A stretch of 64,000 bases of DNA from Candidatus Hydrogenedentota bacterium. GTDB taxonomy: Bacteria; Hydrogenedentota; Hydrogenedentia; Hydrogenedentales; CAITNO01. Below the pieces are notes generated by a model. The model searched no databases and had not been told where the DNA came from. It saw only the letters and a list, made by a program, of their open reading frames with translations. This document shows, piece by piece, positions 11,045-54,502 of the stretch (the stretch's first letter is position 1; each line of letters opens with the position of its first letter). The DNA lies in NCBI GenBank assembly GCA_019455225.1, contig JACFMU010000003.1, positions 1,697 to 65,696 on the forward strand. The letters are read 5' to 3'. The position numbers and the translations under genes were made by a program.

Positions 11045-11196
11045 GGCCGGTTGGCGTGGATGTCTTATCTTGCTCCTACATCCTCAACCGAATCTGGCCT
11101 TCCGTACCCGCCACCCCTTCCCGGGCTGCCGGTGTGTGTGACCGGTCATGATTAGAGCAAGAGCAAGATAAAGAGCAAGATAAAAACGGGATGCGC
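11045..11196. repeat. MITE-like element copy A (TTGCTC/GAGCAA-armed family), short version
   Basis: The terminus ggccggttggcgtg and left arm remnant tcttatcttgctcc are present. The module caaccgaatctggccttccg...ctgccggtgtgtgtgaccggtc is about 85% identical to the one in copy D. The right arm reads gagcaagagcaagataaagagcaagataaaaacgggatg. Confidence 0.6.
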
Positions 11197-11330
11197 GTAT
11201 GCCCGGCTCCGCCCGCGCAAAGTGTGACAATACAGCGCCTATGGGGGTAGAATTGGAAAGCAGTCCGCCCCGGCCGGGGCGTCCCGGCGGATACCGGCGC
11301 GGCGGGCGCACACCACAAGGAGGCAGTGCG

Positions 11331-12413
11331 TTGAAACACAGGGCGCGCGCGGGCGGGGTTGCGTTGTTGCTGGTCTGTGCGCTTTTTTCGGGTTGTCCCC
11401 GGAAGAAGGCGCCGGATGCGGATTTTAGCGCGGACAAGACCACCGGCCCGGCTCCGCTGGCGGTCCAGTTCACGGACCTCACCGCGCCGGGCTCCTCGCC
11501 CGTCACCGAATGGCGGTGGCTTTTCGGCGACGGCGCGGAAAGCGCGGAGCAGAACCCCGCCCACACCTACGGCGCCGAGGGTGTTTACACCGTCTCGCTG
11601 GAGGCGACCAGCGCGGCCGGCGCCAACAAGGAGACCAAAACGGGTTACATCACGGTCACGGAGCCTGAGCCGGAACCCGGACAGGTGGAGACCGTGATGC
11701 TGCCGGGGGACGTGCCCCTGTTGATGGTGTGGGTGCCCGCAGGAATCTTTCAGATGGGCGCCGTTTCCGGCGAGCAGGGCGCGCAGTCGGACGAGTCGCC
11801 CCGGCACGAGGTCACGCTGACAAAGGGCTTCTGGATCGGCAAATACGAGATTACCAAGGCGCAGTGGGCCGCGGTCATGGACGGCGCGGCCCCGTGGGAG
11901 GGCCGGGGCAACATCAGCGACGACCCGGACAGTCCGGCGGTGTGGCTCACCTGGGAGGACTGCGCGGCGTTCACGGCGCGCCTGAGCGTCCTGACGGGGA
12001 AGGCGTACCGCCTTCCGGCCGAGGCGGAGTGGGAGCGCGCCGGCCGCGCCGAGACCAATTCCCGGTTTTATTGGGGGGACGACCTGGACAGGCTGTTCAT
12101 CGGCGAAAACGCCTGGTGGATTGAAAACACCTGGTCCGCCGGCGAGCGGTACGCCCACACGGTCGGGCTGAAAATCCCAAACACCTTCGGCCTGCACGAC
12201 ATGGCCGGAAACGTCTGGGAATGGTGCCAGAACTGGTACTACCCCTACACGGTGGACCCGGTGACGGACCCCCGCGGGCCGGCCACGGGGGATTCGCGGG
12301 TGATGCGGGGCGGCGGCTGGTTCAACAACGAGGCCGAGTGCCGCCTGGCGAACCGGACCTACAAAATCCCCCAGTACGCCAACTACGGCACGGGGTTCCG
12401 CGTCGCCCGGTGA
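11331..12413 (+). CDS. Lipoprotein with a PKD domain and a formylglycine-generating-enzyme (FGE/SUMF1)-like domain
   Basis: A TTG start with an aaggagg RBS gives LKHRARAGGVALLLVCALFSGC, a lipobox. A PKD-like segment is ADFSADKTTGPAPLAVQFTDLT...NPAHTYGAEGVYTVSLEATSAAG. FGE motifs are GKAYRLPAEAEWERAGRA, HDMAGNVWEWCQNWY and RVMRGGGWFNN. Confidence 0.75.
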   Translation: MKHRARAGGVALLLVCALFSGCPRKKAPDADFSADKTTGPAPLAVQFTDLTAPGSSPVTEWRWLFGDGAESAEQNPAHTYGAEGVYTVSLEATSAAGANKETKTGYITVTEPEPEPGQVETVMLPGDVPLLMVWVPAGIFQMGAVSGEQGAQSDESPRHEVTLTKGFWIGKYEITKAQWAAVMDGAAPWEGRGNISDDPDSPAVWLTWEDCAAFTARLSVLTGKAYRLPAEAEWERAGRAETNSRFYWGDDLDRLFIGENAWWIENTWSAGERYAHTVGLKIPNTFGLHDMAGNVWEWCQNWYYPYTVDPVTDPRGPATGDSRVMRGGGWFNNEAECRLANRTYKIPQYANYGTGFRVAR

Positions 12414-12459
12414 GGCGGTCCGGAAACCCGCCCCATTCGTTGCGCAATCCGGAAAAAAC

Positions 12460-18724: not shown

Positions 18725-18780
18725 CGGACCGAAAGGCCCGCGGCAAACCCAACAACAACCCCCGAGAGGAGGATGAGACC

Positions 18781-19170
18781 ATGAAAGAGAACACCATTCC
18801 GGCCAACACGGAGCAGAAGGTTCCGGACACCCGTGAGGAGTCGCGCACGATGGTTCCCCCCGTGGACATCTTCGAGACGGAAAACGGCCTGGTAGTGGTC
18901 GCGGACCTGCCCGGCGTGGAGCAGGGCCAGGTCGAGGTGGATGTGGACAAGAATGTCCTGACCCTGAAGGCCAAGCCCGCGCAGAAACTCACCGAGGGGC
19001 TCAGCCTCAACGAGTTCCGCCTGCTCCCCTACTTCCGCCAGTTCCAGCTCAGCGACACGGTGGACCAGGAGAACATCCGCGCCGAGATGAAGTACGGCGT
19101 GCTGACCATCCACCTGCCCAAGGTGGCGGAAAAGCAGCCCCGCAAAATCGCCGTGACGGTCACCGGCTGA
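18781..19170 (+). CDS. Hsp20/alpha-crystallin family small heat-shock protein (second copy)
   Basis: VDIFETENGLVVVADLPGVEQGQVEVDVDKNVLTLKAK...AEMKYGVLTIHLPKVAEKQPRKIAV matches the family. A gaggagga RBS is present. Confidence 0.85.
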   Translation: MKENTIPANTEQKVPDTREESRTMVPPVDIFETENGLVVVADLPGVEQGQVEVDVDKNVLTLKAKPAQKLTEGLSLNEFRLLPYFRQFQLSDTVDQENIRAEMKYGVLTIHLPKVAEKQPRKIAVTVTG

Positions 19171-19220
19171 CCCTCCACAGGGCGTCCAAGCCCTGACAAC
19201 ATACCCATCTCTGCCTCACT

Positions 19221-19260
19221 GGACCCCGGCGGCGGCCACGCCCCGGGGTCCGACTGCTTT
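19221..19260 (+). terminator. Rho-independent terminator after the second hsp20
   Basis: ggaccccgg-cggcggccacgc-ccggggtcc is followed by gactgcttt. Confidence 0.5.
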
Positions 19261-19438
19261 CGCGCGGAGGTGATTTTGGCGGGAAATATATTGTATAATG
19301 TCTAACGTTCATCCCCCGGACGGCAGCCGCAACGGCGCCCCATGGTGAGGATGGACTGGAACGGACCCCATGAACCGGGTGAAGGCCCCATGGACGGAAC
19401 ACGCCGCCGCCCCCCGGAAAACCCATTGAGGCATCAAA

Positions 19439-20041
19439 ATGCAGCGCACCATATTTGACACGCCGTTTGTCACCATCCTCGGCCGCATTTGGGCGCGCCT
19501 GTTCCTGGGCGCCATCGGCTGGAAGAAGGAGGGGGACCTGCCGGACCTGCCGAAGTTTGTGATGATTGCCGCGCCGCACACCACCAACTGGGACCTCCCC
19601 ATCATGCTGGCGCTGGGCTTTCTGATGCGCGCGAAACTCTTCTGGATGACGAAAGACTCCGTGTTCCGCGGGCCTTTTGGCGTCTTTCTGCGCTGGCTCG
19701 GGGGGATTCCGATTGACCGGAGCAGGGCCAACGGCGTGGTCGGCCAGTGCATTGAGACCTTCGCCAACCATGACCAACTGATTTTGGCCGTGCCTCCCGA
19801 GGGCACGCGGAAGAAGGTGCGCGCCTGGAAGACGGGCTTCTACCACATCGCCGTGGGCGCGGGCGTGCCCATCGCCCTGGGCTATCTGGACTACAAACGC
19901 CGCCGGGGCGGCGTGGGCGGGGTCTACTACCCCACGGGCGACTACGAGAAGGACATCGTGGAAATCCAGGCCTTCTACGCGAATGTCACCCCGAAATACC
20001 CCGACCTCACCGCACTGGCCGAGCCTGCGGAAAAGGGGTGA
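19439..20041 (+). CDS. Lysophospholipid (1-acyl-sn-glycerol-3-phosphate) acyltransferase family protein
   Basis: AAPHTTNWDLP is the H-x4-D motif. PEGTRKKV is the acceptor-binding motif. Confidence 0.7.
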   Translation: MQRTIFDTPFVTILGRIWARLFLGAIGWKKEGDLPDLPKFVMIAAPHTTNWDLPIMLALGFLMRAKLFWMTKDSVFRGPFGVFLRWLGGIPIDRSRANGVVGQCIETFANHDQLILAVPPEGTRKKVRAWKTGFYHIAVGAGVPIALGYLDYKRRRGGVGGVYYPTGDYEKDIVEIQAFYANVTPKYPDLTALAEPAEKG

Positions 20042-20044
20042 GGT

Positions 20045-21340
20045 CTACGCGTCCGGGTCGCCCAGCGTGAGGCCGTGCTCCAGCATCGGGTCGCCCCGCC
20101 GCCCGTTCCGGGCGAGTTCCCCGGCAAGCCATGCCTCGAGCCGCGCCTCCATTGCGGCGGCCTCCTCCGGCCGCTCCGCCGCAAGGTTCCGCAATTCGTC
20201 CGGGTCGTTGACCAGGTCGTAGAGTTCCCGTGACGGGGTGCCGTAGGCGTCCTCCCGGCGCGCCAAAATGAACTTGCGCTCCGGGGTGCGCAGGGCCCAC
20301 TTCATCTGCCAGGTGCATTCGCCGCAGACCAGGAATTCCCGGGCCGCGTCCGTCCGCTCCCCGCGCATCCACGGCGCGAGCGGCACGCCGTCCATCCCCT
20401 CCGGCGCGGGCAGTCCGGCCAGTTCCAGCAGGGTGGGTGCCACATCCATGTGGCAGGTCATCACGGGCACCCTGCGCGGGGAGAGTTCCGGATGGCGGAC
20501 GATGAGCGGCACATGCAGGTTGCCGTCGTAGAGTCCGTGGTGATCGAAGAAGATGCCGTGCCGGAACATCATCTCGCCGTGGTCGCCGAGGAGCACGATG
20601 ATGGTGTCGTCCCGGCGGCCCAGACGGTCCACGGTCTTCAGCAGCGCGCCGATGCCCTCGTCGCAGTAGCGGATTTCGGCGTCATACAGTGCCTCGATGT
20701 AGCGCGCGTCGGTGATTTCCCCCTGCGCCAGCCGGTTGAACCACGTTTCGCGCCAGGTCTTTCCGAGCGGGTGCCGCTCCAGCCCCTGCAGGGTGGTGTG
20801 CGCCGGGTCGCAGGGGTCGCCGTCATAAAAGAGGCTGCGATAGGCCCTTGGCGGCATGTAGGGCGTGTGCGGGTCCCAGTAATGGATGAACAGGAAAAAC
20901 TGCTCCCGGTGGTGCTGTTCCAGCCAGGGCAGCACCCGCCGGTTGATCTCCCGGTTGTCCGCGTTGATGGAGAGGCTGCGTCGCTGGGTGGGGTCAATGT
21001 AGAACTCGAAGCCCCGGTGGAAGTCCAGGGTCCACTGGCTGAGGTTGTCCACGGCGCAGGTGGTCATGCCCGACTTGCCCAGCAGTTGCGGCAGCCACGG
21101 CGCGTTCCGGGGGATGGGGTTCCGCCCCCCGTGGGCCACGACCCCGTGGGTGACGGCGTGCTGCCCCGTGAACAGGGTGGTAAAGGCCGGGTGCGTGGGG
21201 ATGCACGGCGAAATGTGCCGCTCGAAAAGCACCGACTCCCCCGCGAGGGCGTCCAGGTGGGGCGAGGTGTTCCGGGCATAGCCGTAACAGCCGAGATGGT
21301 CCGCCCGCAGGGTGTCCACGGCGATGAGGATGATGTTCAT
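20045..21340 (-). CDS. Sulfatase-family (alkaline-phosphatase-superfamily) hydrolase with an atypical active-site motif
   Basis: MNIILIAVDTLRADHLGCYGYARNTSPHLDALAGESVLFERHISPCIPTHPAFTTLFTGQH has a sulfatase N-terminus. In place of C-x-P-x-R it has C-I-P-T-H. The start at 21340 is preferred over the track's 21745, whose N-terminal extension is a low-complexity Arg/Cys artefact. Confidence 0.7.
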   Translation of the reverse strand: MNIILIAVDTLRADHLGCYGYARNTSPHLDALAGESVLFERHISPCIPTHPAFTTLFTGQHAVTHGVVAHGGRNPIPRNAPWLPQLLGKSGMTTCAVDNLSQWTLDFHRGFEFYIDPTQRRSLSINADNREINRRVLPWLEQHHREQFFLFIHYWDPHTPYMPPRAYRSLFYDGDPCDPAHTTLQGLERHPLGKTWRETWFNRLAQGEITDARYIEALYDAEIRYCDEGIGALLKTVDRLGRRDDTIIVLLGDHGEMMFRHGIFFDHHGLYDGNLHVPLIVRHPELSPRRVPVMTCHMDVAPTLLELAGLPAPEGMDGVPLAPWMRGERTDAAREFLVCGECTWQMKWALRTPERKFILARREDAYGTPSRELYDLVNDPDELRNLAAERPEEAAAMEARLEAWLAGELARNGRRGDPMLEHGLTLGDPDA

Positions 21341-21350
21341 GCGCGGGCGC

Positions 21351-21448
21351 TTCCTGGGAACGCCAATCTCCTGATTGGCCTGTTGGGGGATGTTCTTGAA
21401 CCAATGATGCCAATCGGGAGATTGGCGTTCCCGGGAAGCGCATCCCCC
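21351..21448. repeat. REP-like long palindromic hairpin element (GGGAACGCCAATCTCC family), copy 1
   Basis: cttcctgggaacgccaatctcctgattggc...gccaatcgggagattggcgttcccgggaagc has roughly 30-bp arms, a 2-mismatch stem and a 29-nt loop. It lies between two co-directional genes. Confidence 0.7.
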
Positions 21449-21476
21449 CCGAAACAGAACTGCATGCCCCGTCTTT

Positions 21477-23327
21477 TCATTGCACCGTCTCCAGCCGGTA
21501 GAGCCGGGTGACCTCGATGCCCGTTCCCGCGAGGCGGGGTGTCTCCACCTGCTCCAGCATCCTGCACAGGGCGGTGTTGCCGGTCCAGGCGCGGAGCATT
21601 TCCCGCACCGCCTCCGGCAGGGGCGAATTGTCGCCGAGGTAGTCGTCGGGCACCACCAGCAGCCCGACCTGGTTCTCCCGCAGCCACTGCACGCGCTCGC
21701 CGCCCGGCAGCGTCGCCGCATGCGCCAGCGCTTCGGGGTTCGCAAGCGGAGGAATGTCGTACAGGGCCGCGCTCCGGTCCAGCACCAGCGCGCGCCGTCC
21801 GGACATTTCCGGCAGCCGCGCGTTCACGGCCTGGACCGCCGCAAAGCGGGGCACGCGCCGTTCCAGCCACGCCTCGCGGGTCATGCGCCCGGCGAGCACG
21901 GGCCAGTGCGGCTGGAAGCGCAGGGCGTGCAGGCCCAGCCCGAAAAGGCAGCCCGCCACCAGCAGGACGGCGAGGGTGCGCCGGAACGCGGGCATGCGGA
22001 CCGGGGCGGCCGCGGCGGCGCCGAGCGCCAGGGCGCACCAGGGCAGCGCGGCCAGGGTCGAGCGGTGGAAGAAGTACAGCGGGAGGCCGCCCAGCAGCGC
22101 CGCAAGCAGGACCAGCCGCGCGCGGTGTCCGCCGAAGAGGAAGGCGGGCACGCCCAGGGCGAAGAGCATGCCCCCGGCGGAGCGCGCCCAGCCGCCAGAG
22201 GCGGCGGGCCGCATGACCAGGTCCCAGGGGAAGCGCGCCAAGGAGACCCAGTGGAAACCGGAGACCGCATAGGCGGGGTCGGGGGCCAGTGACAGGGACG
22301 GCCATGCGCCCCCATGAAACCGTGCCAGTGCCAGCAGGGCGCCGGGGAAGAGGGCGGCGCAGACCAGCAGCAGCAGCGCCCTGCCAAGGCGTTCTGCGGG
22401 ACCGGGGGCGAAGGTGTCCGGGTTTTCGGTGTCGGGCAGATGGAACAGCGCCGCCAGGGCCAGCAAAACCGGCAGGGGGAGGGCGGTCCAGCCCGCGCCG
22501 ACGGCGGCGCCCGACATCAGCCCCGCAAGGGCGAAGTAGCCCGCGCGCGCGCCCGACACGCCCGCCAGCAGCGCGGTCATGGCCGCAAGGGCAAAGGCCG
22601 TCTGCGCGGGGACCAGGGTGAGCGTGGCCGCCTGGCCGAAGAACACCGGCGCGCAGGCAAAAAGGGCCGCCGCGCCCGCTCCAGCCGCCGGACCCGCGAT
22701 TCGGCGGCCCAGCGCCCACGCGGCCAGCACCGCCATCAGGGACATCGTCCACGAAAGCAGCGCGGCCGGGCGCTCGCCGCTGCCCGCCCAGACCAGCCCG
22801 TAGAGGGGGCGCACCAGTCCGGGCAGTTCGGAATGGGCCTGGAGCGGCGTGGGCCGGAGGCTGCCCTGCGCGGCCCAGGCCTTCGCGAGGGCCAGCGGCC
22901 CCGACGTGGCCTCCGGCGCGGACACGGGCGCCCAGGAGGCGAGAAAGGCCAGGGCCAGCGCGAGAAAAGCCAGGGCCAGACAGGTTGTTTCCAGGGGGCC
23001 GCGCCGCCGCGCGGGCGGCGCGCTTTCATCGGGCGTGGTTGACGTGCCGTGCCGGTTCGATTTTTCCAGGCGCGAACGCCGCCGCGCGGGGCGGTCATAC
23101 ACCCGTGCGGCCGCCTCCGCCAGCGCGCCCAGGGCCACCACGATGAAGAGCGCGCCCTGCGCCGCCTGCATGGAATGGGCGCCCGCCGCCAGTACCAGCA
23201 CACCGCATCCCGCCAGCCCCAGAAGCATGCGGAAGTGCCACCCCTCCGCGCCCTGCTCCAGGGGAAGAAGCCTGCCCAGCATCCGGCCCAGGGCCGCCGC
23301 CGCCATGAGAAGCAACAACAACGACAT
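21477..23327 (-). CDS. Polytopic integral membrane protein, possibly a GT39/GT83-like glycosyltransferase
   Basis: It has more than 12 predicted TM helices (MSLLLLLMAAAALG..., LALAFLALALAFLASW...) and a C-terminal soluble domain. The start at 23327 is preferred. The functional call is weak. Confidence 0.45.
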   Translation of the reverse strand: MSLLLLLMAAAALGRMLGRLLPLEQGAEGWHFRMLLGLAGCGVLVLAAGAHSMQAAQGALFIVVALGALAEAAARVYDRPARRRSRLEKSNRHGTSTTPDESAPPARRRGPLETTCLALAFLALALAFLASWAPVSAPEATSGPLALAKAWAAQGSLRPTPLQAHSELPGLVRPLYGLVWAGSGERPAALLSWTMSLMAVLAAWALGRRIAGPAAGAGAAALFACAPVFFGQAATLTLVPAQTAFALAAMTALLAGVSGARAGYFALAGLMSGAAVGAGWTALPLPVLLALAALFHLPDTENPDTFAPGPAERLGRALLLLVCAALFPGALLALARFHGGAWPSLSLAPDPAYAVSGFHWVSLARFPWDLVMRPAASGGWARSAGGMLFALGVPAFLFGGHRARLVLLAALLGGLPLYFFHRSTLAALPWCALALGAAAAAPVRMPAFRRTLAVLLVAGCLFGLGLHALRFQPHWPVLAGRMTREAWLERRVPRFAAVQAVNARLPEMSGRRALVLDRSAALYDIPPLANPEALAHAATLPGGERVQWLRENQVGLLVVPDDYLGDNSPLPEAVREMLRAWTGNTALCRMLEQVETPRLAGTGIEVTRLYRLETVQ

Positions 23328-23536
23328 GAGGTGAATATCCGCCCATCCCCGGAAGCCCACATCCCCCGGCCCTGAAGGGCCACCCCCTTCAAAGGGGGAC
23401 AGGGGCGGATTGAACGGAAAGGGTGTGCCGCACACCCTTGCCCATTGTGTCACCCGAAGATTGGCCGCAAGTTATGAACCCGTTGCCGCAAACTTTACCA
23501 CAGCCCCCCCGCGCCGGGCATCCCGCCCGCACGTAT

Positions 23537-23681
23537 TTCTTGCTCTTGCTCTTTATCCTGCCCTTGCTCCAAGTCCGAAATGCTTTTCCGCTCATACCCT
23601 GCTGAAACAGGATTGGAGCAAGAGCAGGAGCAAGATAAAGAGCAAGAAAAGACCCCCCGCGCCTGCCGGCATGCGTGTCTC
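23537..23681. repeat. MITE-like element copy B (TTGCTC/GAGCAA-armed inverted repeat)
   Basis: The left arm is tcttgctcttgctctttatcctgcccttgctcc, followed by a 44-bp spacer and the right arm ggagcaagagcaggagcaagataaagagcaaga. A tail gcctgccggcatgcgtgtctc follows. It lies between divergent genes. Confidence 0.6.
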
Positions 23682-23800
23682 TTCACCGCAATTAGTGACG
23701 CGCATCCCACCGCCTTGCCCGCCTTGCCCGGAGCCCCAAAACCCGGTAGGATGGTGGGGAGTCCAACGGCGGGGCGCCGAACGTCCCCGGAAAGGTGAAA

Positions 23801-24904
23801 ATGAACAGTGTCGTTGTCTGCGCGGCCGTGGCATGCGCCCTGCTGGGCGCGCCCTCGGGCCGCATTGCCTTTGTGGCGGGCACGGAGCAGGAGGACCAGT
23901 GCGTCGCGGTCCTCGACGCGGCCACGGGGGAAATCACGCGGGTCGGGCCGGGCAGCCGGGACGGCGCCCCCGTGTGGTCGCCGGACGGCCGGTGGCTGGC
24001 GTTTCAGACCAGCGGCCCCGACGGCCTGGCCGTGTGCGTCGTCCGCGCGGACGGTTCGGAGCGCCGCCTGCTCACCCACGCGCGGGGCTGGAACCACGCG
24101 CCGCGCTGGTCGCCGGACGGGAAACGGCTGGCCTATGCGTCGGACGCGGACATGGGCATCCGCCAGCAAATTCTGGTGTACGACCTGGAGCAGAACACCG
24201 AGACGGCCTGGGGCGGCGAGGGCGCCCTGGCCCTGCGGCCCGTGTGGCTGCCGACGACGGACCTGATGCAGGCCCTCGACCCGGAAAGCCAGTCGGACAT
24301 GGCGGCGGAGCTGCTCCCCCTGAAGGAGGAGGCCGAGCGGGAGGGCGCCCTGCTCGCCGTGGGCCTGGCGGGCGGCGAGTCGAAACTGACCTCTGAAATT
24401 GTCCTGATAACGCCGACACGCTGCGTCCCCATGCTGCCCCTGCTGGTGAAGGACAGTTTCCGTTTCGCCGAGTGGTTTGTGGAGCCGGACCGAAAGGGCC
24501 GCCAGATCGCCTACGAGTCCAACGACGGCGGGGACCGGGAGCTCTTCGTCATCGGGCGCAAGGGCATCACCAATGTGAGCAACCACCGCGCGGCGGACTG
24601 GAACCCCGTCTGGTCGGAGGACGGCCAGTGGCTGGCCTTCGAGTCCTTCCGCGGCGGGCGGCGCGGCGTCCACCGCGTGCTGGTGGGCACGGCCAACGTC
24701 ACCCCCGTGGCGGTCCGGCCCAACGCGGACTGCTGGGCGCCTTCCTGGTCGCCAGACGGCGAGTGGATCGCCCATGTCTCCGATGAGACGGGCGCGCCCC
24801 AGCTTTTCGCCACGCCGCCGCAGGGCGGCGACTCCGTCCAGTTGACCCGCGGGCCGGGCTTCGCCCTGGCACCGGCCTGGCAGCCCAAGGTTAAGAAGGA
24901 CTGA
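23801..24904 (+). CDS. TolB-like WD40 (PD40) beta-propeller periplasmic protein
   Basis: A signal peptide is followed by repeated 'W.PDG..LAF/AY.S...G' blades (PVWSPDGRWLAFQT, PRWSPDGKRLAYAS, PVWSEDGQWLAFES, PSWSPDGEWIAHVS). Confidence 0.75.
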   Translation: MNSVVVCAAVACALLGAPSGRIAFVAGTEQEDQCVAVLDAATGEITRVGPGSRDGAPVWSPDGRWLAFQTSGPDGLAVCVVRADGSERRLLTHARGWNHAPRWSPDGKRLAYASDADMGIRQQILVYDLEQNTETAWGGEGALALRPVWLPTTDLMQALDPESQSDMAAELLPLKEEAEREGALLAVGLAGGESKLTSEIVLITPTRCVPMLPLLVKDSFRFAEWFVEPDRKGRQIAYESNDGGDRELFVIGRKGITNVSNHRAADWNPVWSEDGQWLAFESFRGGRRGVHRVLVGTANVTPVAVRPNADCWAPSWSPDGEWIAHVSDETGAPQLFATPPQGGDSVQLTRGPGFALAPAWQPKVKKD

Positions 24905-24912
24905 ACGCCATC

Positions 24913-25959
24913 ATGAGCAAAAGACACGCCCCCATCCTCCTTGCCCTGGCGCTTCTGGCCGCCGCGCCCCTCATGGCCCGCGAGCCGGACGGCACCCTGG
25001 GCCTCATCCGGACCCCCAACAACGGCATCCCCGCGCTGGTCGTTCCTGGCGGCGCCTTTGAGGCCGTGCTTGCGGCAAAAGCCGAGCTTTTCCTGGCCCG
25101 TGACGGTCAGGAATGGCCCCTGGCGGCGGAGTGGTCGGAACTGCCGGGCGGCGCAATGGGCGCGCGCTGCGCCGTGCCCGCCGGGCTGGCCCCCGGATCC
25201 CATGCGCTCCGCGCGAAAACGGACGGCAAGGCGGACGAGAACCTCCGGTCCGTATGGGTCTTCGACGCCTTCCCGGAGGAATACTATGTCGTGGCCCATG
25301 TCAGCGACACGCACATCGGCAAGGAGCGCTACGAGCGGCCCTCGGACGACATCATCCGCGACGTGATCGCGGCGGTGAACGAAAGCGAGGCCGCCCTGCT
25401 GTTCATCACCGGCGACCTCACCGAAGGCGGCGACCCCGAGCAGTTCCGGCGTTTTCTTGCATTGCTGGACACCAGCACCCTGCCCTCCTTCGTCTGCCCA
25501 GGCAACCATGATCGGCAGGCGCTGCACTACGAGCAGTTTTTCGGCCCCATGGCCTACCGCTTCACTTTTGGCCGCGACGGTTATCTCTCCTTCGACACCA
25601 AGGACTTCATGGTGGCCGATGAACTGGGGCCGCAGGACGGCCTGCTCCACCTGTACCGGCGGGAGATCGGGCCGTCGCGGTGGAGCGTCGGGCTCACCCA
25701 CCGCTACGAGGCCATGATGGGCATGCGCGCGCAATTGACCCTCTTCGTGGACGACCCCCTCGACTTCATCCTCCAGGGGCACACCCACCAGGAAAACGAG
25801 CCCGGCGAGGCCGTGCCCTGGGGCACCACCCCGCTGTACATCGTCCCCGCCGCCATAGATGGGCGCATGCGCCTCCTCGATGTCACCGAGCAGGGGGTCA
25901 TTCCCCGGCCCGTGCAGAAGGTCGCCGAAACCGGACCCAGGCGCGCCGGCGCGCGGTAG
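24913..25959 (+). CDS. Calcineurin-like metallophosphoesterase
   Basis: A signal peptide is present. HVSDTHIG, ITGDLTEGG, CPGNHD and LQGHTHQ are the canonical MPE motifs. Confidence 0.8.
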   Translation: MSKRHAPILLALALLAAAPLMAREPDGTLGLIRTPNNGIPALVVPGGAFEAVLAAKAELFLARDGQEWPLAAEWSELPGGAMGARCAVPAGLAPGSHALRAKTDGKADENLRSVWVFDAFPEEYYVVAHVSDTHIGKERYERPSDDIIRDVIAAVNESEAALLFITGDLTEGGDPEQFRRFLALLDTSTLPSFVCPGNHDRQALHYEQFFGPMAYRFTFGRDGYLSFDTKDFMVADELGPQDGLLHLYRREIGPSRWSVGLTHRYEAMMGMRAQLTLFVDDPLDFILQGHTHQENEPGEAVPWGTTPLYIVPAAIDGRMRLLDVTEQGVIPRPVQKVAETGPRRAGAR

Positions 25960-25980
25960 GGGGCTGTTCCTGACGACTAG

Positions 25981-26110
25981 TGGACGGGGTGGACAGAGTG
26001 GACGGAAGGGACGCAGGGGACTGAGGGGACGGAAGAGACGGAGGAGCGCCGGCTGCCATTTTTTGGCTGCCAAGCAGGCCCACCGCGTCCACGCTGTCCA
26101 CTCCGTCCAC
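25981..26110 (+). terminator. Giant imperfect hairpin built from 9-bp periodic repeats, a putative terminator or REP-like element
   Basis: The left half is seven 9-mers (gtggacggg gtggacaga gtggacgga agggacgca ggggactga ggggacgga agagacgga). The loop gccggctgccattttttggctgcc contains a T-run. Inverted 9-mers follow (cgcgtccac gctgtccac tccgtccac). Confidence 0.45.
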
Positions 26111-26144
26111 CACCTGAATTCTCCCGATACTTCCCTCCACCCCC

Positions 26145-26182
26145 TTGACAGCGCGCCAAAAGTGTGTTAGTATGTTAACACA
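26145..26182 (+). promoter_or_regulatory. Sigma70-type promoter (TTGACA-N17-TAGTAT) with an overlapping palindromic operator TGTGTTA-N6-TAACACA
   Basis: ccccTTGACAgcgcgccaaaagtgtgtTAGTATgttaacaca shows the promoter. The palindrome at 26163..26182 overlaps the -10. This is typical autoregulation for GntR/YtrA. Confidence 0.6.
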
Positions 26183-26205
26183 ATCAAGCAATGGAGGCGC
26201 CGGGA

Positions 26206-26625
26206 ATGCTCTTCGCCATCAACCCCAGTGACGGCACGCCGCTGTACTTCCAGGTGGTCCGCCACGTCAAGCATCTCATCGCCACGGGCCGCCTCGGGCC
26301 GGGGGACGAACTCCCCACGGTGCGGGCCCTGGCCCAGCAACTGGTCATCAACCCGAACACGGTGGTTCGCGCCTACAGGGAACTGGAGGCGGCGGGCCTC
26401 ATTTACACACGCCGGGGTTCGGGCACCTATGTGGCGGAAAAGCCCGTGCCCTATTCCGATGACGAGCGGCGGCGCATCCTGGCGGAGCGGCTGGACGGCG
26501 CACTGGTGGAGTCGCGCAATCTGGGTTTCGGCCTCGATGAGGTTGTGGCCCTTCTTCGTGAGCGGGACCGCGCCCTGCGGATTCAGGGCAAGAAACAGGG
26601 AGAGGACCCCCATGACGGAGCATGA
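26206..26625 (+). CDS. GntR-family (YtrA-subfamily) transcriptional regulator
   Basis: LYFQVVRHVKHLIATGRLGPGDELPTVRALAQQLVINPNTVVRAYRELEAAGLIYTRRGSGTYV is a GntR HTH, followed by a short C-terminal helix domain (YtrA type). GGAGG lies 7 nt before the ATG at 26206. Confidence 0.8.
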   Translation: MLFAINPSDGTPLYFQVVRHVKHLIATGRLGPGDELPTVRALAQQLVINPNTVVRAYRELEAAGLIYTRRGSGTYVAEKPVPYSDDERRRILAERLDGALVESRNLGFGLDEVVALLRERDRALRIQGKKQGEDPHDGA

Positions 26626-27508
26626 CAGTCGGGAGTTTGTGGTAGAGGTGTCGGGGCTGTCGCGGCGTTTCGGCCGCAAGGACGCGCTGAAGGAGGTCTC
26701 CCTGCGGGTGGCGCGGGGGCAGGTCTTCGGGCTGGTGGGGGAGAACGGCGCGGGCAAGACCACGCTCATCCAGCACCTGCTGGGGGCGTACCGCCCGAAG
26801 GCGGGCATGGTCCGGGTCTTCGGCCTGGACCCCTCCACGCACCCCACCGCCGTGCTGGCGCGGATCGGCTACCTGTCGGAGGACCGCGATCTGCCCCGGT
26901 GGATGCGCGTGGGCGAGCTGATGCGCTACACCCGGTCCTTCTACCCGAAATGGGACGCGGCCTTCGCCGAGCAGCTCCGGGAGGAGTTCGGCCTCTCCGC
27001 CGCCAGCCGCATCCGCAGCCTGTCGCGGGGGGAGCTGGCCCGCGCGGGGCTGCTGGTGGCGCTGGCGCACCGCCCGGAACTGCTCCTGCTGGACGAGCCG
27101 TCGTCCGGGCTGGACGCGGTGGCGCGCCAGCACATTCTTGCGGCGGTGGTGCGGACCGTGGCGGAGGAGGGTCGCACGGTGATTTTCTCGTCGCACCTGC
27201 TGGAGGAGGTGGAGCGGGTGGCGGACCATGTGGCGATGATCCACCACGGGCGGGTGGCGCTGGACGCGCCGATGGACGAGGTGAAGGCGCGGCACCACGC
27301 CCATGTGCTGCGGTGGGCGGAGCCGCGCGCGGACACGCCGGAACTGCCCGGGCTGCTCCACGCCGTGCGGGACGGCGGCGAGTGGCGCGTGCTGTGCGAC
27401 GGGGACGCGGCGGCGTTCAGGACGGCGGCGGCGGCGCTGGGCGCCGAGGTGGTCGAGTCGTCCACGCCCACGCTGGAGGAGATATTTGTGGCGCGGGTCG
27501 GCAAGTGA
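26612..27508 (+). CDS. ABC transporter ATP-binding protein
   Basis: Walker A is GENGAGKTT. The signature is LSRGELARAGL. Walker B is LLLLDEPSSGLD. The H-loop is SSHLL. It overlaps the GntR stop by 14 nt. Confidence 0.9.
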   Translation: MTEHDSREFVVEVSGLSRRFGRKDALKEVSLRVARGQVFGLVGENGAGKTTLIQHLLGAYRPKAGMVRVFGLDPSTHPTAVLARIGYLSEDRDLPRWMRVGELMRYTRSFYPKWDAAFAEQLREEFGLSAASRIRSLSRGELARAGLLVALAHRPELLLLDEPSSGLDAVARQHILAAVVRTVAEEGRTVIFSSHLLEEVERVADHVAMIHHGRVALDAPMDEVKARHHAHVLRWAEPRADTPELPGLLHAVRDGGEWRVLCDGDAAAFRTAAAALGAEVVESSTPTLEEIFVARVGK

Positions 27509-27524
27509 CGCGGAGGGAAGAACC

Positions 27525-30500
27525 ATGAACAGCAAACTGCGCGCCCTGCTGTGGGAGGAGTGCCGCGTCGGCGGCTCCATCACGGGGATGATGTTTTTCA
27601 CCGGGATCATGGTGCTTTTCGGGCTGCGCCCCGACGCCCATTGGAACGCCGCCGACTGGCGGCGCGAGGCGGATTTCGTGGTGTTCGTCACCCTGGCGGT
27701 GCCGCTGTTCACGGCGCTGCTGCTCACGCTGAACCCCGGCAATTCGGGCCACCTGAAGGGCGGGTTCTCGCGGCGCATCCTGCGCCTGCCCGTCGAGACG
27801 CCCGTCGCAGTCACGGTGACCCTGCTCACGCGCCTGGCGCTGGTGCTCGCGCAGGGCGTGTTGATGCTGGGGCTCTGCGGGCTGGTCTTCGGCGAAAGCC
27901 TCGGGCTGCGCCCCGTCTTCGCCCTGGGCGCCGCCTACCTGCTGGTCCAGGTGCTGGACTGGATGCGCGCCGTGGCACCCGTCATGGTGGCGTGCATCGT
28001 GGCGCTGGGGGTTGCGGTGGTGTTTTGGTTCGGCCACTGGGAGGGATGGGTCGGGCTGGCCGGGGCGCAGACGCCCGTCACCCTGTCCCTGCTGGCCGGT
28101 TTCGCCGCGCTCACCCTGGCGGCCTGGGCGGCGGGCCTGTGGCTGGTGGCGCGGACCCGTTGCGGCGAGATACTGCCCGGCCCGGCCCTGCCCCGTCCAT
28201 CGGAAATCTGGGGGGAGGGCCGGTACCATGCCAAGGCCGCCCCCTTCACGTCCCCGAACCGGGCGCTGTTCTGGCGGGAGATGCGGCGGACGAACCTGTC
28301 CCTCCCGCTCATGGCCCTGCTGGTGTGGCTGCTGGGGCTGGCGGTGATATTCGGGGAGATGTGGCTGGCGGGGGACTTCAACTTCATGAAGAGCCGGCGC
28401 GCCTTCCTGCTTTTCGAGGTGCTGCCCTACGGGGCGGTGCTGCTGATGGCTTTCCCATGGTACCTGCGGAGCGGCGCCAAAATCCGCTTTGGCGCGCACC
28501 GGCCCACGGGGTATGAGATGCGCCTGCCCGTGCCCAGGGCCGCCCTGGCCGCCGCGCGCCTTCGGGTGGCGGGGATTAACCTGGCCGTGGCCCTTGGTTT
28601 GGCCTGGGCCGTGCAGACGGCGCATTTCCTGTTCGCCGACAACCACGTCGTCCTGTACCTGCTTGCGGACGGGCTGCAAACGGGCGGCGCCGACTGGCGC
28701 GAGGTGGCCACCCTGCTGCTGGGCCCCGCCCTCGCTGTGGGCGTCGCGGCATGGATTATCATGACCAACGCGGCGTGGGTGGGGAGTATGGCGGCCATCG
28801 GCGGCGCGCTGTATTTCTTTTTAAGAAGCCTGCCCTTTTCTCACATTAGGGACTGGGCCTCCTTCCTGCCCACGCTGGAGTATCTGCTTGCCTTTCCAGG
28901 GCGGCTCTACTCGCCTTTTTGGGGGATGGCCGTGACGTCCCTGATCTTCATCACCCTGCTGTGGTTTGTCGCGGGGGTGGCGCTGATGCGGGTGCTGGGC
29001 GTGTCCACGCGCCGGGCTGCGGCGGTGACCCTGCTGCTGTGGCCGGGCATTGCGGCGGCGCTGTTTCCCTGGTCTGACCGGCCCGACCATGGGTTTGAGT
29101 GGACCGGGGTGATGGTCTGCCTGACCCTTGCGGCGCTGGCCTTGCAGGGCCGCACCAATGCGCTGCGCACCGCGTGCGGGCTGGGATGGTTTGACCGGCT
29201 CACCCCCATGGAGAAGGGCGGGGCCGGGAACAGCACGTTCGGCTTGAAGTCCGTGCGGATGTTGTGGGCTTTGACAGTATTGTTGGCGGCGGTGGGGTTG
29301 GTGTGGCTGCGCTGGCCAAGTGAACCGGCGCGCGCCAGAATGCTCCGCGCCGAAGGGCGCCCAGCAACCCTTGAAGAGCTGAACAACTGGTATCTCCCAG
29401 TGTCCCCGGGGGAAAACCTCGCAAAGCGGTACCAGGAGGCTGTTCAAAAAAATCAGGCGTTGTATACTCAATGGCAGCAGGCGTATAAAAAGCCCGTTGA
29501 TGAGAGCCCGCAGGGCAAGGAAGCGGCCGGGGCTTTTCCCGGCCCGCCAATGCCTGAAGACCCGTATGAGAATCTGCTGGTGCAGGGGAATGCAAAAGTG
29601 AAGCGGGAGGAATTGCTCCCGAAAGCGGTGTGGGAGACCAGTCTGGACTATTGGCGCACGGTGGGGGAGCCGGTGGCGGAAATGCTGCACGGAATTGCGG
29701 CGTCTGGCCTGACCAAAAGCCGGTACCCCGTGGACACACGACCGGGCCCCGGCACGATACTGGACCATTTGGCGCCGGTGCGCAACCTTGCGCGCGTCCT
29801 TTCCCTGGGGGCCTGGGTTGCCGCCGTGGAGGGACGCCCCGCCGACGCGGTCACGGCGATACTGGACATGGCCCCCTTGGGCAATTCCTTGGCCGATGAA
29901 CCGATTCTTATCTCCCAACTGGTGCGTGTTGCCGTCCACGGCATTGCCTGCGCTGCAGTGGAGACGGTAATGAACCGGACCACCCTTCCCGAATCGGAAC
30001 TGCTCAGGCTACAGGAAGGGCTTGCCCGGTTTCTCCCTCCCCGTGAGGCGGGGCCGCTGTTTGAGCGGGCCATGCAGGGCGAGGAGGTATTCATTCTGGG
30101 CAGCGGTTATATAATAATGAGTGAAATGTCTCCTTCGCTCGGATTTTATTCTGGAATACCCTGGTTGTTCTCTGCGGAAAAAATCAAGGCAGGAATGGCC
30201 ATCGTGCTCTATGGGTTCACGGGCATGCAGAGCATGAACGGGATTTTGAGCGCCGATTTCCAGCGGGACCTCGAGGCCAAGGCGCGGGCCGCGCTCCTGC
30301 AGGACAAAGCACCGACAGAGGACTACTGGAAATCCGCATCCCTCTCTCATTTGGTCCCGGAACAGCCTTTGGACAATTCACGAGTGGGGCGCATGGTACA
30401 ACTGACTTCCCCCAGGCGGGGTGGCATCCGGGGAGACAATGGCCAGCCCTGGCGGCCCATCATTCCCTGGGACAGCATCGCCAACACGGTCCTTTTTTTT

Positions 30501-30878
30501 CGTGCAACCCACGCATCCATCGCCTTGCCAGCCCTTATTCGCGCTCACGATACCGAGTGGCGCATCCGGACGCAATTCGACCTGTGCCGGACGGGGCTTG
30601 CGGTGGAGCGGTACCGCCTGGCCAATGGCCGTCTGCCGGAGGCGCTTGAGGAACTGGTGCCGCAGTATCTGGACCGCGTTCCGCCGGACCCGTGGAACAA
30701 CGGCAGGCCCCTGAGCTACCGCGTTCGGGAGGACGGCGGGTTTGTCGTGTACAGTTACGCCATGAACCGGCAGGATGACGGCGGGGAGGAGATCGACGGG
30801 TGGTGGCAAAAGGGCGACATAACGTTTACCGTCTGCGCGCCGGAAATCCGGGACCGGGTGCAGGTGGCGGGGGGGTAG
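27525..30878 (+). CDS. Fused double ABC-2-type permease (1117 aa) with a large extracytoplasmic C-terminal domain ending in a GspG/pseudopilin-like module
   Basis: There are two permease-like halves, each beginning with a cytoplasmic 'LLWEECR' or 'LFWREMRR' motif, plus one further TM segment. The C-terminus PPDPWNNGRPLSYRVREDGGFVVYSYAMNRQDDGGEEIDGWWQKGDITF resembles the T2SS GspG globular domain. A ggaggg RBS is present. Confidence 0.7.
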   Translation: MNSKLRALLWEECRVGGSITGMMFFTGIMVLFGLRPDAHWNAADWRREADFVVFVTLAVPLFTALLLTLNPGNSGHLKGGFSRRILRLPVETPVAVTVTLLTRLALVLAQGVLMLGLCGLVFGESLGLRPVFALGAAYLLVQVLDWMRAVAPVMVACIVALGVAVVFWFGHWEGWVGLAGAQTPVTLSLLAGFAALTLAAWAAGLWLVARTRCGEILPGPALPRPSEIWGEGRYHAKAAPFTSPNRALFWREMRRTNLSLPLMALLVWLLGLAVIFGEMWLAGDFNFMKSRRAFLLFEVLPYGAVLLMAFPWYLRSGAKIRFGAHRPTGYEMRLPVPRAALAAARLRVAGINLAVALGLAWAVQTAHFLFADNHVVLYLLADGLQTGGADWREVATLLLGPALAVGVAAWIIMTNAAWVGSMAAIGGALYFFLRSLPFSHIRDWASFLPTLEYLLAFPGRLYSPFWGMAVTSLIFITLLWFVAGVALMRVLGVSTRRAAAVTLLLWPGIAAALFPWSDRPDHGFEWTGVMVCLTLAALALQGRTNALRTACGLGWFDRLTPMEKGGAGNSTFGLKSVRMLWALTVLLAAVGLVWLRWPSEPARARMLRAEGRPATLEELNNWYLPVSPGENLAKRYQEAVQKNQALYTQWQQAYKKPVDESPQGKEAAGAFPGPPMPEDPYENLLVQGNAKVKREELLPKAVWETSLDYWRTVGEPVAEMLHGIAASGLTKSRYPVDTRPGPGTILDHLAPVRNLARVLSLGAWVAAVEGRPADAVTAILDMAPLGNSLADEPILISQLVRVAVHGIACAAVETVMNRTTLPESELLRLQEGLARFLPPREAGPLFERAMQGEEVFILGSGYIIMSEMSPSLGFYSGIPWLFSAEKIKAGMAIVLYGFTGMQSMNGILSADFQRDLEAKARAALLQDKAPTEDYWKSASLSHLVPEQPLDNSRVGRMVQLTSPRRGGIRGDNGQPWRPIIPWDSIANTVLFFRATHASIALPALIRAHDTEWRIRTQFDLCRTGLAVERYRLANGRLPEALEELVPQYLDRVPPDPWNNGRPLSYRVREDGGFVVYSYAMNRQDDGGEEIDGWWQKGDITFTVCAPEIRDRVQVAGG

Positions 30879-30881
30879 GGG

Positions 30882-30915
30882 TTACGAGTTACGAATTACG
30901 AATTACGAATTACGA
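30882..30915. repeat. Tandem heptamer repeat (TTACGAA) x about 5
   Basis: gttacgagttacgaattacgaattacgaattacgaatcaag lies immediately after the permease stop. Confidence 0.8.
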
Positions 30916-30937
30916 ATCAAGAGGGTCGGTGGCCGTG

Positions 30938-34703: not shown

Positions 34704-39880
<5,177 letters not shown>

Positions 39881-52687: not shown

Positions 52688-53929
52688 TCAGGCCTTTTTC
52701 TTCCCGGGGACCGGGATGGGGCCAAGCGGATACTCCTTGTCGAAGTCCAGCACGGCCGGGACGATGTTCTCGTCGCTGTTGAGCGCGTCGTCCCACTTGA
52801 CCTCCTGGCCGGTGTAGGCGGCCATGCGGCCCATGATGGCCGTCAGGCAGCTCTCGGCCACCTGGACGCCCTCGTTCAGGTAGGGGCCGCCGCCGAGGAT
52901 GCTCGCGTACAGGTCCGTGTGCTCCTGCACATACGGGTCCGTGGTGTCGCGCATGGTGCGGCAGGGGCTCTTCCCCTTGGTCCCCGTCACCTGCTCGAAC
53001 ACGCCGTTGGCCGAGTTGTTCCAGTGCCGCGACATGCTCAGGACATGGACGCCGTTCGGGTATTCATAGTCGCAGGTGAAATTGTCCCAGATGTCGCCGT
53101 AGCGCTCCTCGCCGAGCGGTTTCCAGGCGCGCCCGCCCGACGCCACCACCTTCACCGGGTGCGCGTTCAGCGCCCAGTTAATCACGTCCAGGTTGTGGAC
53201 ATGCTGCTCGAGGATGTTGTCGCCGCAGGTCCAGCACTGGTTGTACCAGTTGCGCAGGCGGTATTCGAGATCGCTCCAGCCCGGCTTGCGCGCGTGGCTG
53301 AAGGGGAGGTCGCCGTTCCAGTAGGCGCGGCCGGCGACAATCTCGCCGATGTCCCCGTCGTGGATGCGCTTGATGCCCTCGATGTAGGGCGCCTGGTGGC
53401 GGCGCTGCGTGCCCGCGACCACGGACAGTTTCATCTCGCCGGCCTTGCGCGCCGCCTCCATGAACCGGCGGATGCCCGTGGCGTCCACGGCCACCGGCTT
53501 TTCCGTGAAGATGTGCTTGCCCGCGTTCACCGCCGCCTCGAAGTGAAGCGGGCGGCAGTAGGGCGGCGTGGCCAGCATGATCACGTCCACGTCCGTCTTC
53601 AGCAGTTGGGCGTAGGCGTCGAGCCCCACAAAGCACTGCTCGTCCGTCAGGGCGACCATGGCCGCCTTCTCGTGGCTCTCCAGTTTCTTCCGGCAGTCCT
53701 TCAGCTTGTCCTCGAACACGTCCGCAAGGGCGGTGATCTTGACGTTTGCGCCGCTGTCGAGACAGTTGAACGCCGCGCCCGTGCCGCGCCCGCCGCATCC
53801 GATGAGGCCGACCTTCAACGCGTCGGCCTGGGCGCGCGCGCCCCGCGCCGACAACACGGCAAAGCCCGCCAGCGCCGACATCTTCGCAAAATCCCTGCGG
53901 CTGATTCCGCCGCCCTGCTCAGTTCCCAT
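52688..53929 (-). CDS. Tat-exported Gfo/Idh/MocA-family NAD(P)-dependent oxidoreductase
   Basis: SRRDFAKMSALAGFAVLSARGARAQA is a Tat signal. LKVGLIGCGGRG is a Rossmann motif. The EKP motif is FTEKPVA. GGAGG lies 9 nt upstream of the ATG at 53929. Confidence 0.8.
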   Translation of the reverse strand: MGTEQGGGISRRDFAKMSALAGFAVLSARGARAQADALKVGLIGCGGRGTGAAFNCLDSGANVKITALADVFEDKLKDCRKKLESHEKAAMVALTDEQCFVGLDAYAQLLKTDVDVIMLATPPYCRPLHFEAAVNAGKHIFTEKPVAVDATGIRRFMEAARKAGEMKLSVVAGTQRRHQAPYIEGIKRIHDGDIGEIVAGRAYWNGDLPFSHARKPGWSDLEYRLRNWYNQCWTCGDNILEQHVHNLDVINWALNAHPVKVVASGGRAWKPLGEERYGDIWDNFTCDYEYPNGVHVLSMSRHWNNSANGVFEQVTGTKGKSPCRTMRDTTDPYVQEHTDLYASILGGGPYLNEGVQVAESCLTAIMGRMAAYTGQEVKWDDALNSDENIVPAVLDFDKEYPLGPIPVPGKKKA

Positions 53930-54095
53930 GCTGCAAATCCTCCTGACCCTCGGGTCGCATCGTGGTTTTATAACGGTCCGGCACCATTCCGGGCCATGCA
54001 CCGAAACAGCATAGCAGAAAAGCCCGCGCATTTCAGCAAGTTTGGCGGTCATGGCGGCGGCGAACGCGTCAACACTGCGGCGGCATGACACTCGG

Positions 54096-54372
54096 ACAGG
54101 TTGGCGCGGGCGTTTGTTCTTGCTCTTGCTCTTGCTCTTTATCTTGCTCCCGATCCAAATCCCCAACCGATTCCGGCTTCCGGACCCCGCCATCACTTCC
54201 CTGCCTGCCGGTGTGTGCCCGGTCTTTTGGACGGCATTTTCACTTCAGAAAAACTCATGTCCTTTTGATGCACGGTGGGTTTTCATGGCCAAAGGGCATG
54301 TTGCCGCCTTCGCGGAAACAGAAGTGGAGCAAGAGCAGGATAAAGAGCAAGAGGAGGAAAAAAACCGGGATG
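54096..54372. repeat. MITE-like element copy D (most complete member of the TTGCTC/GAGCAA-armed family)
   Basis: The left arm is ttcttgctcttgctcttgctctttatcttgctcc. The conserved module is ccaaccgattccggcttccggacc...cctgcctgccggtgtgtgcccggtc. The right arm is ggagcaagagcaggataaagagcaagaggaggaaaaaaaccgggatg. It lies between divergent genes. Confidence 0.65.
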
Positions 54373-54502
54373 ACGGGGAGAGGGGTATTTGTGAATGTGT
54401 GGAAATTTGGAATACAAAGGTATTCGAGACGCCTGCCCTTGCGGTCATGGCGGCGGCGGCGGCCCGTCTTGTAAGATAAGGGGCGCAACCGCACCCCAAA
54501 GG

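Follow-up and report, generated by a model that had tools for sequence, protein, structure and literature searches.

Short non-coding repeats built from opposed hexamer arrays in a Candidatus Hydrogenedens genome, with an arm module that recurs in distant bacteria

Background

In the foldback (FB) transposons of Drosophila, the inverted arms consist of tandem short subrepeats, are of unequal and variable length, and enclose a variable centre. The subterminal hexamers (AAACGG) of Ac/Ds are units to which the transposase binds. Among prokaryotic repeats, those of the REP/BIME/REPIN type are abundant intergenic palindromes without target duplications, which often lie in operons near stop codons; REPs are unique palindromes of 20-40 bp whose 5' tetranucleotide is conserved and to which a RAYT gene is linked. 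Hexamer arrays can also act as operators, the Fur box being an example.

Bacterial MITEs like Chunjie (Geobacter uraniireducens) and Correia/NEMIS (Neisseria) reside in operons or intergenic regions (PMC10969869). The BrickBuilt MITE of Porphyromonas gingivalis has promoter activity (PMC4596501). TAACTGA heptamer repeats occur in Beggiatoaceae, cyanobacteria, and Bacteroidetes; these scattered lineages suggest horizontal spread, for which there is no known mechanism (PMC4679880). The elements presented here consist of two opposed arrays of a 6-bp unit, and in the literature searched we found no prokaryotic description of such an element: full-text searches with arm strings and with repeat, MITE, and foldback terms returned only primers or unrelated papers. 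The 2024 review of prokaryotic MITEs contains nothing of this type; the words tandem, hexa-, subterminal, and foldback are absent from it, and 'minisatellite' appears once, in the title of a reference only (PMC10969869).

Results

Four sites of common design

The window, i.e. the whole stretch of 64,000 nucleotides that was analysed, belongs to a Candidatus Hydrogenedens sp. MAG and has a GC content of 67%. About 100 kb of DNA from this species were examined; contig JAAYYZ010000042.1 (GCA_012515115.1) agrees with window positions 18758-30920 at an identity of 99.99%. The window contains exactly four elements, named A, B, C, and D, which follow the same plan: a left (YTNNTC)n array, a variable core of 45-175 bp, and a right (GANNAR)n array. 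At these four sites, the hexamers TTGCTC, TTTATC, and CTGCTC constitute the left arms and GAGCAA, GATAAA, and GAGCAG the right ones. With at most one mismatch allowed, GAGCAAGAGCAR matched the window 17 times compared to an expectation of 0.56; none of 100 shuffles reached this number, and all 17 matches fall within sites A-D. A looser scan of the whole window did not detect a fifth site with three or more units. Because the GC content of the window is 67%, the GATAAA units are far off its composition; such AT-rich units nevertheless persist in this genome.

A preliminary description of this DNA had located four elements at these places, and a re-reading of all sites, together with the array enrichment, is in full agreement with it. 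Inverted TTGCTC-rich and GAGCAA-rich arms, which it had ascribed to each element, are present on both sides of B and D, whereas the left arm of A consists of two units and that of C is degenerate. The limits that it had proposed turned out to be too narrow, as C comprises positions 37945-38208 and as B and D are bracketed further out by direct repeats. The gene setting was correctly described: A, B, and D are located between divergent genes, C between a symporter and a GH2 gene. The size of the elements is 137-396 bp, which lies below the bound of about 600 bp for MITEs. They have no coding capacity, and the ORFs that run through them are artefactual extensions of neighbouring genes.

Copy C and its empty site

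Copy C (37945-38208) is the most complete one and has the fullest ends. Its perfect terminal inverted repeats of 15 bp (TTTAGCCGATTGGCG at 37945-37959 and CGCCAATCGGCTAAA at 38194-38208) enclose a degenerate left arm (TTCTTTCCTGCTCTTGCGCGCCTGCTCCC, about 37965-37993) and a right arm of seven clean GAGCAA units (38126-38167). The motif GCCGRTTGGCG has three exact matches in 64 kb, namely two at the ends of C and one at the left end of A. Two nucleotides outside each terminal repeat of C, the sequence GTTAC is found (37938-42 and 38211-15); a repeat of this length (5 bp) is not significant. The predicted fold of C has a z-score of -6.8. In viral contigs, 35 matches to the 15-mer terminal repeat were observed; according to a rough estimate, this is presumably near the chance expectation for a collection of that size, and these matches were not used.

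Both neighbours of C, an SSF symporter and a GH2 gene, are encoded on the minus strand, and C occupies the spacer of their operon. With C, this spacer has a length of 311 nt in the window, compared to 18 nt in relatives: contigs L213 and L216 (88-89% protein identity) as well as L125 (72%) read TAG gcgcgaagggacagaacc ATG at this position. The symporter-GH2 pair is syntenic, with a short spacer and without the element, in at least 14 relatives, and no hexamer arrays were found in 643 kb of syntenic DNA from metagenome relatives. Relatives of 97% identity possess C; their contigs end inside the arm. As the spacer measures 18 nt at 88-89% and 72% identity and the element is present at 97%, C is a lineage-specific insertion. 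The comparison with empty sites, which the preliminary description had suggested, thus has a clear outcome: the site is filled in this species (at least 97% identity) and empty in the relatives of 88-89% and 72% identity, which shows that C inserted into an 18-nt operon spacer within the lineage of this species.

Copies A, B, and D

Copy B (23516-23652) consists of a left pyrimidine (Y) arm (23536-23570), a core of 44 nt, and a right purine (R) arm (23615-23651). An 11-bp direct repeat, CCCCCCGCGCC, flanks it at 23505-23515 and 23653-23663 (p about 0.012). Neither end of B shows an end motif of the GCCGRTTGGCG type; the sequence GAAACAGnAnTGGAGCAAGAGCAGGA, which lies beside the right arm, is common to B and D. 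For B, a hairpin of -55 kcal/mol (z = -7.4) is predicted. The neighbours are divergent and encode a PMT_2-like protein (minus strand) and a PD40 propeller (plus strand).

Copy A (11045-11196) begins with the end motif GCCGGTTGGCG (11046-11056), which is followed by a Y-arm of two units (TCTTATCTTGCTCC, 11062-11076), a core that contains a module shared with D (11077-11152), an R-arm composed of GAGCAA, GAGCAA, GATAAA, GAGCAA, and GATAAA (11153-11186), and a CGGGATG motif (11187-11193), which taken alone is not significant. For the module shared with D, a length of about 65 bp and an identity of 85% had been given. The module is real; over 82 alignment columns its identity is 73%, and judged by eye it is somewhat above 80% in the central 65 nt or so. 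No significant direct repeat flanks A; an 8-bp candidate, GTGTGACA, was not significant, is not kept in strain L252, and was dropped. The fold of A is no better than that of shuffled sequences (z = -0.1). The left arm of A, which has two units in the window, has six in strain L252 (95-97% nucleotide identity), the difference being a clean 24-bp indel of four units. Polymorphism between related genomes, which the preliminary description had named as a touchstone, is therefore evident for A, in the form of a whole-unit indel.

A is placed between a divergent pair, a gene of unknown type (minus strand) and a PKD+FGE-sulfatase gene (plus strand). About 40 bp outside A, at window positions 11224-11253, there is a good match to a sigma-70-like promoter (GTGACA-18-TAGAAT) for the FGE-sulfatase gene. 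The start of this gene is probably the TTG at about 11333, which follows AAGGAGG, and not the ATG at 11199. In strains of the same species, an insertion of about 2 kb separates the FGE-sulfatase gene from rpsD (L252, 7785-9789; also L253 and L256); the corresponding position in the window is 12413-12424. This islet contains an ORF of 385 aa and two small ORFs, has no Pfam match, and carries no hexamer arrays.

Copy D (54096-54372) is the element flagged at the outset and has the fullest core. Its end motif GGTTGGCG (54100-54107) occupies the same place as the GCCGRTTGGCG-type motif of A and C. A Y-arm (54114-54150) and an R-arm (54326-54362) enclose a core of 175 nt, which contains an A-like module at about 54160-54224 and a B-like module at 54315-54325; CCGGGATG follows the R-arm at 54365-54372. 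A perfect 18-bp direct repeat, GCGGTCATGGCGGCGGCG, whose two copies (54045-54062 and 54441-54458, both on the plus strand; p about 0.004) are the only exact ones in the window, brackets D plus about 100 bp of extra sequence. This repeat is too long for an ordinary target duplication; strain L205 retains 16 bp of it. Place and unit number of D are unchanged in a strain whose nucleotide identity is about 97%; the core differs by 12.5%, the left arm at 0 of 37 positions, the right arm at 3 of 37, and the flanks by 1.8-5.6%. The z-score of the D fold is -1.9.

The divergent neighbours of D encode a GFO/IDH/MocA oxidoreductase with a TAT signal (minus strand) and a GH123-like protein (plus strand). 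The ORF at 52688-54196 on the minus strand begins with 'VMAGSGSRNRLGIWIGSKIKSKSKSKNKRPRQ'; the true start is MGTEQGGGISRRDF at 53929, which is in line with the earlier statement that an arm read in frame artificially extends neighbouring genes. The oxidoreductase starting at 53929 on the minus strand possesses a twin-arginine-type signal, SRRDFAKMSALAGFAVLSARGARA, and is for this reason probably periplasmic. Its close homologues are very common in Hydrogenedentota.

Relations among the copies

Terminal inverted repeats at both ends are found in C only; in A and D a single end bears the motif, and in B neither does. If the arms themselves are taken as the inverted repeats, all four copies would have them. 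Apart from the A-D and B-D modules, cores are not conserved between copies. These common end motifs and core modules identify A, B, and D as mosaic or deleted relatives, and the data support the view that all four sites belong to a single family of short repeats, which do not code for protein and whose origin is mobile or insertional. A check of termini and target duplications, as proposed in the preliminary description, gave a divided result: the ends of C are a perfect 15 bp, but the flanking repeats measure 5, 11, and 18 bp, and A has no significant one. The lengths of the flanking repeats in the window do not fit one transposase, and among the copies of the window only C displays the classical hallmarks of a MITE clearly, as does a subset of those in other genomes.

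No transposase was found among the Pfam-scanned ORFs of the window, and no RAYT/Y1 transposase in the window genes or in the neighbour clusters of the other loci. Rfam 15 gave no match at the gathering score for the whole window and none at E <= 1 around D. Searching a plasmid collection with D and with the MITE of strain HSG2 (see below) yielded nothing relevant. Cores and flanks of the window copies, compared with all loci, gave only short matches at chance level.

Occurrence of the arm module in distant lineages

When one genome per species was scanned with the 20-mer GAGCARGATAAAGAGCAAGA, at least 120 matches were obtained. Note that host range and unit frequencies deduced from this one-pattern scan are biased lower bounds, and that gene calls in the other loci are simple ORF heuristics. 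Among the matches listed, foldbacks occur in Desulfobacterales bacterium HSG2 (dozens of loci) and Desulfococcaceae HSG8, both Thermodesulfobacteriota, in two further Hydrogenedentota MAGs, in a MAG labelled Nitrospiraceae (by its record only), and in two unclassified bacteria. The family is thus wider than the window, a point on which the preliminary description had made its reading depend. On inspection, the 20-mer matches in Methyloceanibacter, Anaerolineales, Acidobacteriaceae, Thiotrichaceae, a gammaproteobacterium, an alphaproteobacterium, Bacteroidales, and Thiohalocapsa proved to be coding sequence or other repeats and not foldbacks; two matches in viral contigs are coding low-complexity sequence.

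Among the matches listed, the pyrimidine array precedes the purine array in 106 of 107 pairs and one pair is reversed; arms are 18-288 bp long and unequal, with gaps of 2-270 nt. The number of hexamers per arm ranges from 2 to at least 48. In the listed matches from Hydrogenedentota, Thermodesulfobacteriota, and the Nitrospiraceae-labelled MAG, the unit repertoire follows the order GAGCAA > GATAAA > GATTAA; GATTAA units were found although they are absent from the search pattern.

For HSG2, a MITE with CATAAGTGTAAACTT terminal repeats at both ends surrounds 13 of the copies listed, and perfect target duplications of 10 bp accompany 9 of these 13; mini-copies contain only two units. Members of this MITE family (L009 2035-2205, L024, L076, L091, L108, and others) have CATAAGTGTAAACTTAAGG terminal inverted repeats; their central loop, CCGTGTCCGTTTG, is conserved, and the stem is the hexamer array. 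Its ends and the length of the duplication presumably recall elements of the IS4/IS231 type. This example shows that in HSG2 the arm module constitutes the core of true MITEs of the DDE type, whose target duplications are 10 bp long. In HSG8, the module lies within a different element that has other ends. About 85% of the listed foldbacks with usable flanks are naked, i.e. an outer inverted repeat of at least 10 bp is missing, and the number of target duplications around listed foldbacks without outer repeats equals the null. As about 85% thus show neither an outer repeat nor a duplication signal, a single DDE mechanism cannot explain all copies.

In two Hydrogenedentota MAGs, a foldback is located at an orthologous place about 36 nt upstream of lepA (elongation factor 4; L059 441-526 and L101 4399-4494). 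The MAGs represent two species whose LepA proteins are 95% identical; the arms of their foldbacks differ almost only at unit positions 3-4, and the spacer is not conserved.

Placement relative to genes

Among the matches listed, foldbacks outside the window are intergenic; of the 82 flanking gene pairs in other genomes, 60 are co-directional, 10 convergent, and 12 divergent, and in co-directional spacers 38 foldbacks are nearer to the upstream stop compared to 14 nearer to the downstream start, with median distances of 14.5 nt and 44.5 nt, respectively. Elsewhere, the neighbours have diverse functions, among them response regulators, ABC ATPases, chemoreceptors, and lepA; a test for neighbour-gene enrichment around 102 of the listed foldbacks returned only large generic families and no transposase. 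In the window, promoter and terminator scans did not detect a sigma-70-like promoter inside any of the four elements.

These findings bear on two proposals of the preliminary description, namely that the elements target promoters and that they donate regulatory sequence to CAZyme genes. Because placement elsewhere is co-directional and near stops and because the neighbours are functionally mixed, neither promoter targeting nor a CAZyme regulon is supported. The lack of a promoter inside the window copies, the persistence of the symporter-GH2 pair without C in at least 14 relatives, and the unconserved cores also speak against both proposals. That the CAZyme and sulfatase genes of the window are co-regulated by the elements is not shown.

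Constraint on the arms

Among the matches listed, positions 1, 5, and 6 of the GA··AA unit are 96-98% invariant and position 2 is so in 93%. Positions 3-4 are polymorphic, with G/T and C/A/T, respectively. Unit usage is symmetric between the two arms. In the listed matches, mirrored units agree between arms at a rate of 0.52 compared to 0.54 after shuffling, and variants with G at position 6 are found 51 times in R-arms and 52 times in Y-arms, i.e. without a G·U bias. Compensatory or mirrored changes and a tolerance of G·U pairs, as expected of a selected RNA hairpin, were not seen. Taken together, the invariant positions, the unmirrored order, the absent G·U bias, and the lepA pair indicate that constraint acts on the double-stranded 6-bp unit and its orientation and not on RNA pairing or on the core.

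In some copies, the outer edges of the arms are abutted by blocks of GAGCGA, GATCGA, or GAGTGA, and arrays with T at position 2 (GTTCAA, GTTTAA, GTGCAA) also occur. Loci with such aberrant hexamers are L098 (about 1035-1075), L092 (about 1844-1880), L056 (about 820-862), L002 (about 6858-6900), and L017 (about 1216-1240). The existence of these blocks and arrays indicates that the unit rule is strong but not absolute.

Discussion

We consider it fairly probable that these repeats constitute a selfish, non-autonomous foldback/MITE-like family, whose arms are made of 6-bp recognition units and vary by slippage, and whose copies are moved by enzymes encoded elsewhere. For such repeats, we propose the name hexamer foldback elements; the core would be free to vary and outer terminal sequences would be optional. 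A transposase encoded outside the window may move the copies in trans, and the different outer ends suggest different transposase partners in different lineages. Growth and shrinkage of the arms would be due to replication slippage; the arm of A does change in whole units between strains. The arms may persist because each GA··AA / TT··TC unit is a putative recognition unit for a DNA-binding protein, whereas mRNA hairpins and any effect on expression would be side effects of the landing sites. A non-autonomous element family had also been among the readings of the preliminary description; the insertion of C and the arm polymorphism speak for it, and classical ends and duplications are recognisable in part of the copies. 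Against our reading stand the fixation of D, whose unit number is unchanged in strains about 3% apart, and the copy at lepA, which is kept across two species; either observation would agree with a retained role as well.

That foldbacks persist at lepA in two species and at site D in two strains has to be weighed in particular with respect to a role at the RNA level, with a mobile origin being secondary: the foldback could form an mRNA hairpin, stabilising or cleaved like those of REP/BIME, Correia, or ERIC, or, as a speculation, a bidirectional Rho-loading site, since transcription from either side would first meet a pyrimidine arm that is rich in C and poor in G. The strong predicted hairpins of B (z = -7.4) and C (z = -6.8), the fixed polarity (106:1 among the matches listed), and the location of foldbacks just past stop codons in co-directional spacers would agree with such a role. 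We nevertheless regard it as unlikely, since the unmirrored order of the units implies that half of them would mispair at two bases, the arms show no asymmetry of the G·U type, A and D fold no better than shuffles (z = -0.1 and -1.9), Rfam gave no match even at E <= 1, and no T-run follows the arms. The same proximity to stop codons, often in operons, is familiar from REP/REPIN-like elements, which are moved by a Y1 transposase (RAYT/IS200-type) acting on single-stranded hairpins. This mechanism would explain copies without target duplications, and most foldbacks indeed lack outer inverted repeats and target duplications; their intergenic location and the high copy number in one genome fit as well. 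However, a RAYT/Y1 transposase was detected neither in the window nor in the neighbours, a conserved GTAG-type head was not recognised by eye in the copies inspected, the arms are long arrays and not palindromes of 20-40 bp, and a defined subset has the 10-bp target duplications that are typical of DDE enzymes, which makes this mechanism distinctly unlikely.

In the window, all four copies are located in 5' or intercistronic regions beside CAZyme- or sulfatase-related genes, as would be expected of a shared cis-regulatory cassette, i.e. of operator arrays or promoter donors that co-regulate secreted glycan and sulfatase genes; the operator function of other hexamer arrays and the promoter activity of BrickBuilt add to this. 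As the window is rich in such genes, the coincidence is weak evidence, however. Elsewhere, neighbours are functionally unrelated and the context is mostly co-directional or near stop codons; close relatives have the same operon without C, the elements contain no promoter-like sites, and their cores are not conserved. We therefore hold a cassette to be very unlikely, and the occurrence of the arm module in very distant bacteria makes a selfish repeat likelier than a promoter cassette of glycan genes. Finally, one might suspect that there is no family at all and that unrelated microsatellite expansions, an assembly artefact, or chance matches of low complexity were compiled, because arms are simple repeats that break short-read assemblies and several single 20-mer matches elsewhere are coding low-complexity sequence. 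Against this stand the enrichment (17 matches versus 0.56 expected), the strict pairing of the arms with fixed polarity, the end motifs and core modules common to copies, and the presence of the same elements in independent assemblies from different samples; we assign next to no probability to it.

More tentatively, the GA··AA / TT··TC array could possibly be a self-standing, horizontally spreading cis-module, which is read by a widely distributed DNA-binding or transposition protein and seeds unrelated MITE centres as well as bare intergenic sites in several phyla; it would then represent a new class of prokaryotic interspersed repeat, the definition of which would be a periodic 6-bp code instead of a unique sequence. 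If the arrays of Hydrogenedentota, Thermodesulfobacteriota, and others are one entity, this repeat would be recognised by its periodic 6-bp unit in the context of different transposon ends. The putative protein would then have a simple binding code, namely AAGA at intervals of six bases.

Short-read contigs from several public samples start or stop in or beside the arms (window positions 23618, 11151, and about 38170). A Logan contig starts at 23618, inside the arm of B, and several contigs start at 11151, beside the R-arm of A; L122, L253, L255, L257, L214, and L215 are broken at arms. These contig ends indicate that the repeats fragment MAG assemblies at gene boundaries. Of practical relevance are also false 'SKSKSK' N-terminal extensions in gene calls and the use of the arrays as strain-level length markers.

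Comparison with known repeat families

The four elements and their counterparts resemble bacterial MITEs in being small, non-coding, multi-copy, and hairpin-capable, in their variable internal deletions, and, for C and the HSG2 subset, in terminal inverted repeats and target duplications, respectively. Like Chunjie, C sits between operon genes without breaking the operon. Each known MITE family, however, is recognised by its unique sequence and does not extend beyond a species or genus, whereas here an array of a 6-bp unit is combined with different outer ends in different phyla, and most hexamer foldbacks are without terminal inverted repeats and target duplications. BrickBuilt is similar in that the body of this MITE is a tandem array of variable copy number and always intergenic (PMC4596501). 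It consists of one direct array of 23-nt units and is species-specific; the elements presented here have two opposed arrays of 6-nt units with fixed polarity and occur across phyla. The features that define REPs, i.e. a unique palindrome, the 5' tetranucleotide, and RAYT, were not found for hexamer foldbacks in the DNA examined. With the TAACTGA repeats, they have in common a short, tandem, intergenic unit and a phylogenetically scattered occurrence (PMC4679880); those repeats are direct, have 2-6 copies in most species, and lie just upstream of starts, whereas the hexamers are paired, inverted, and mostly nearer to stops. FB and Ac/Ds are eukaryotic and have known transposases, and we claim no homology to them. 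The likeness is one of architecture: in hexamer foldbacks, too, tandem subrepeats make up inverted arms whose lengths vary and are unequal, and the centre between them is variable.
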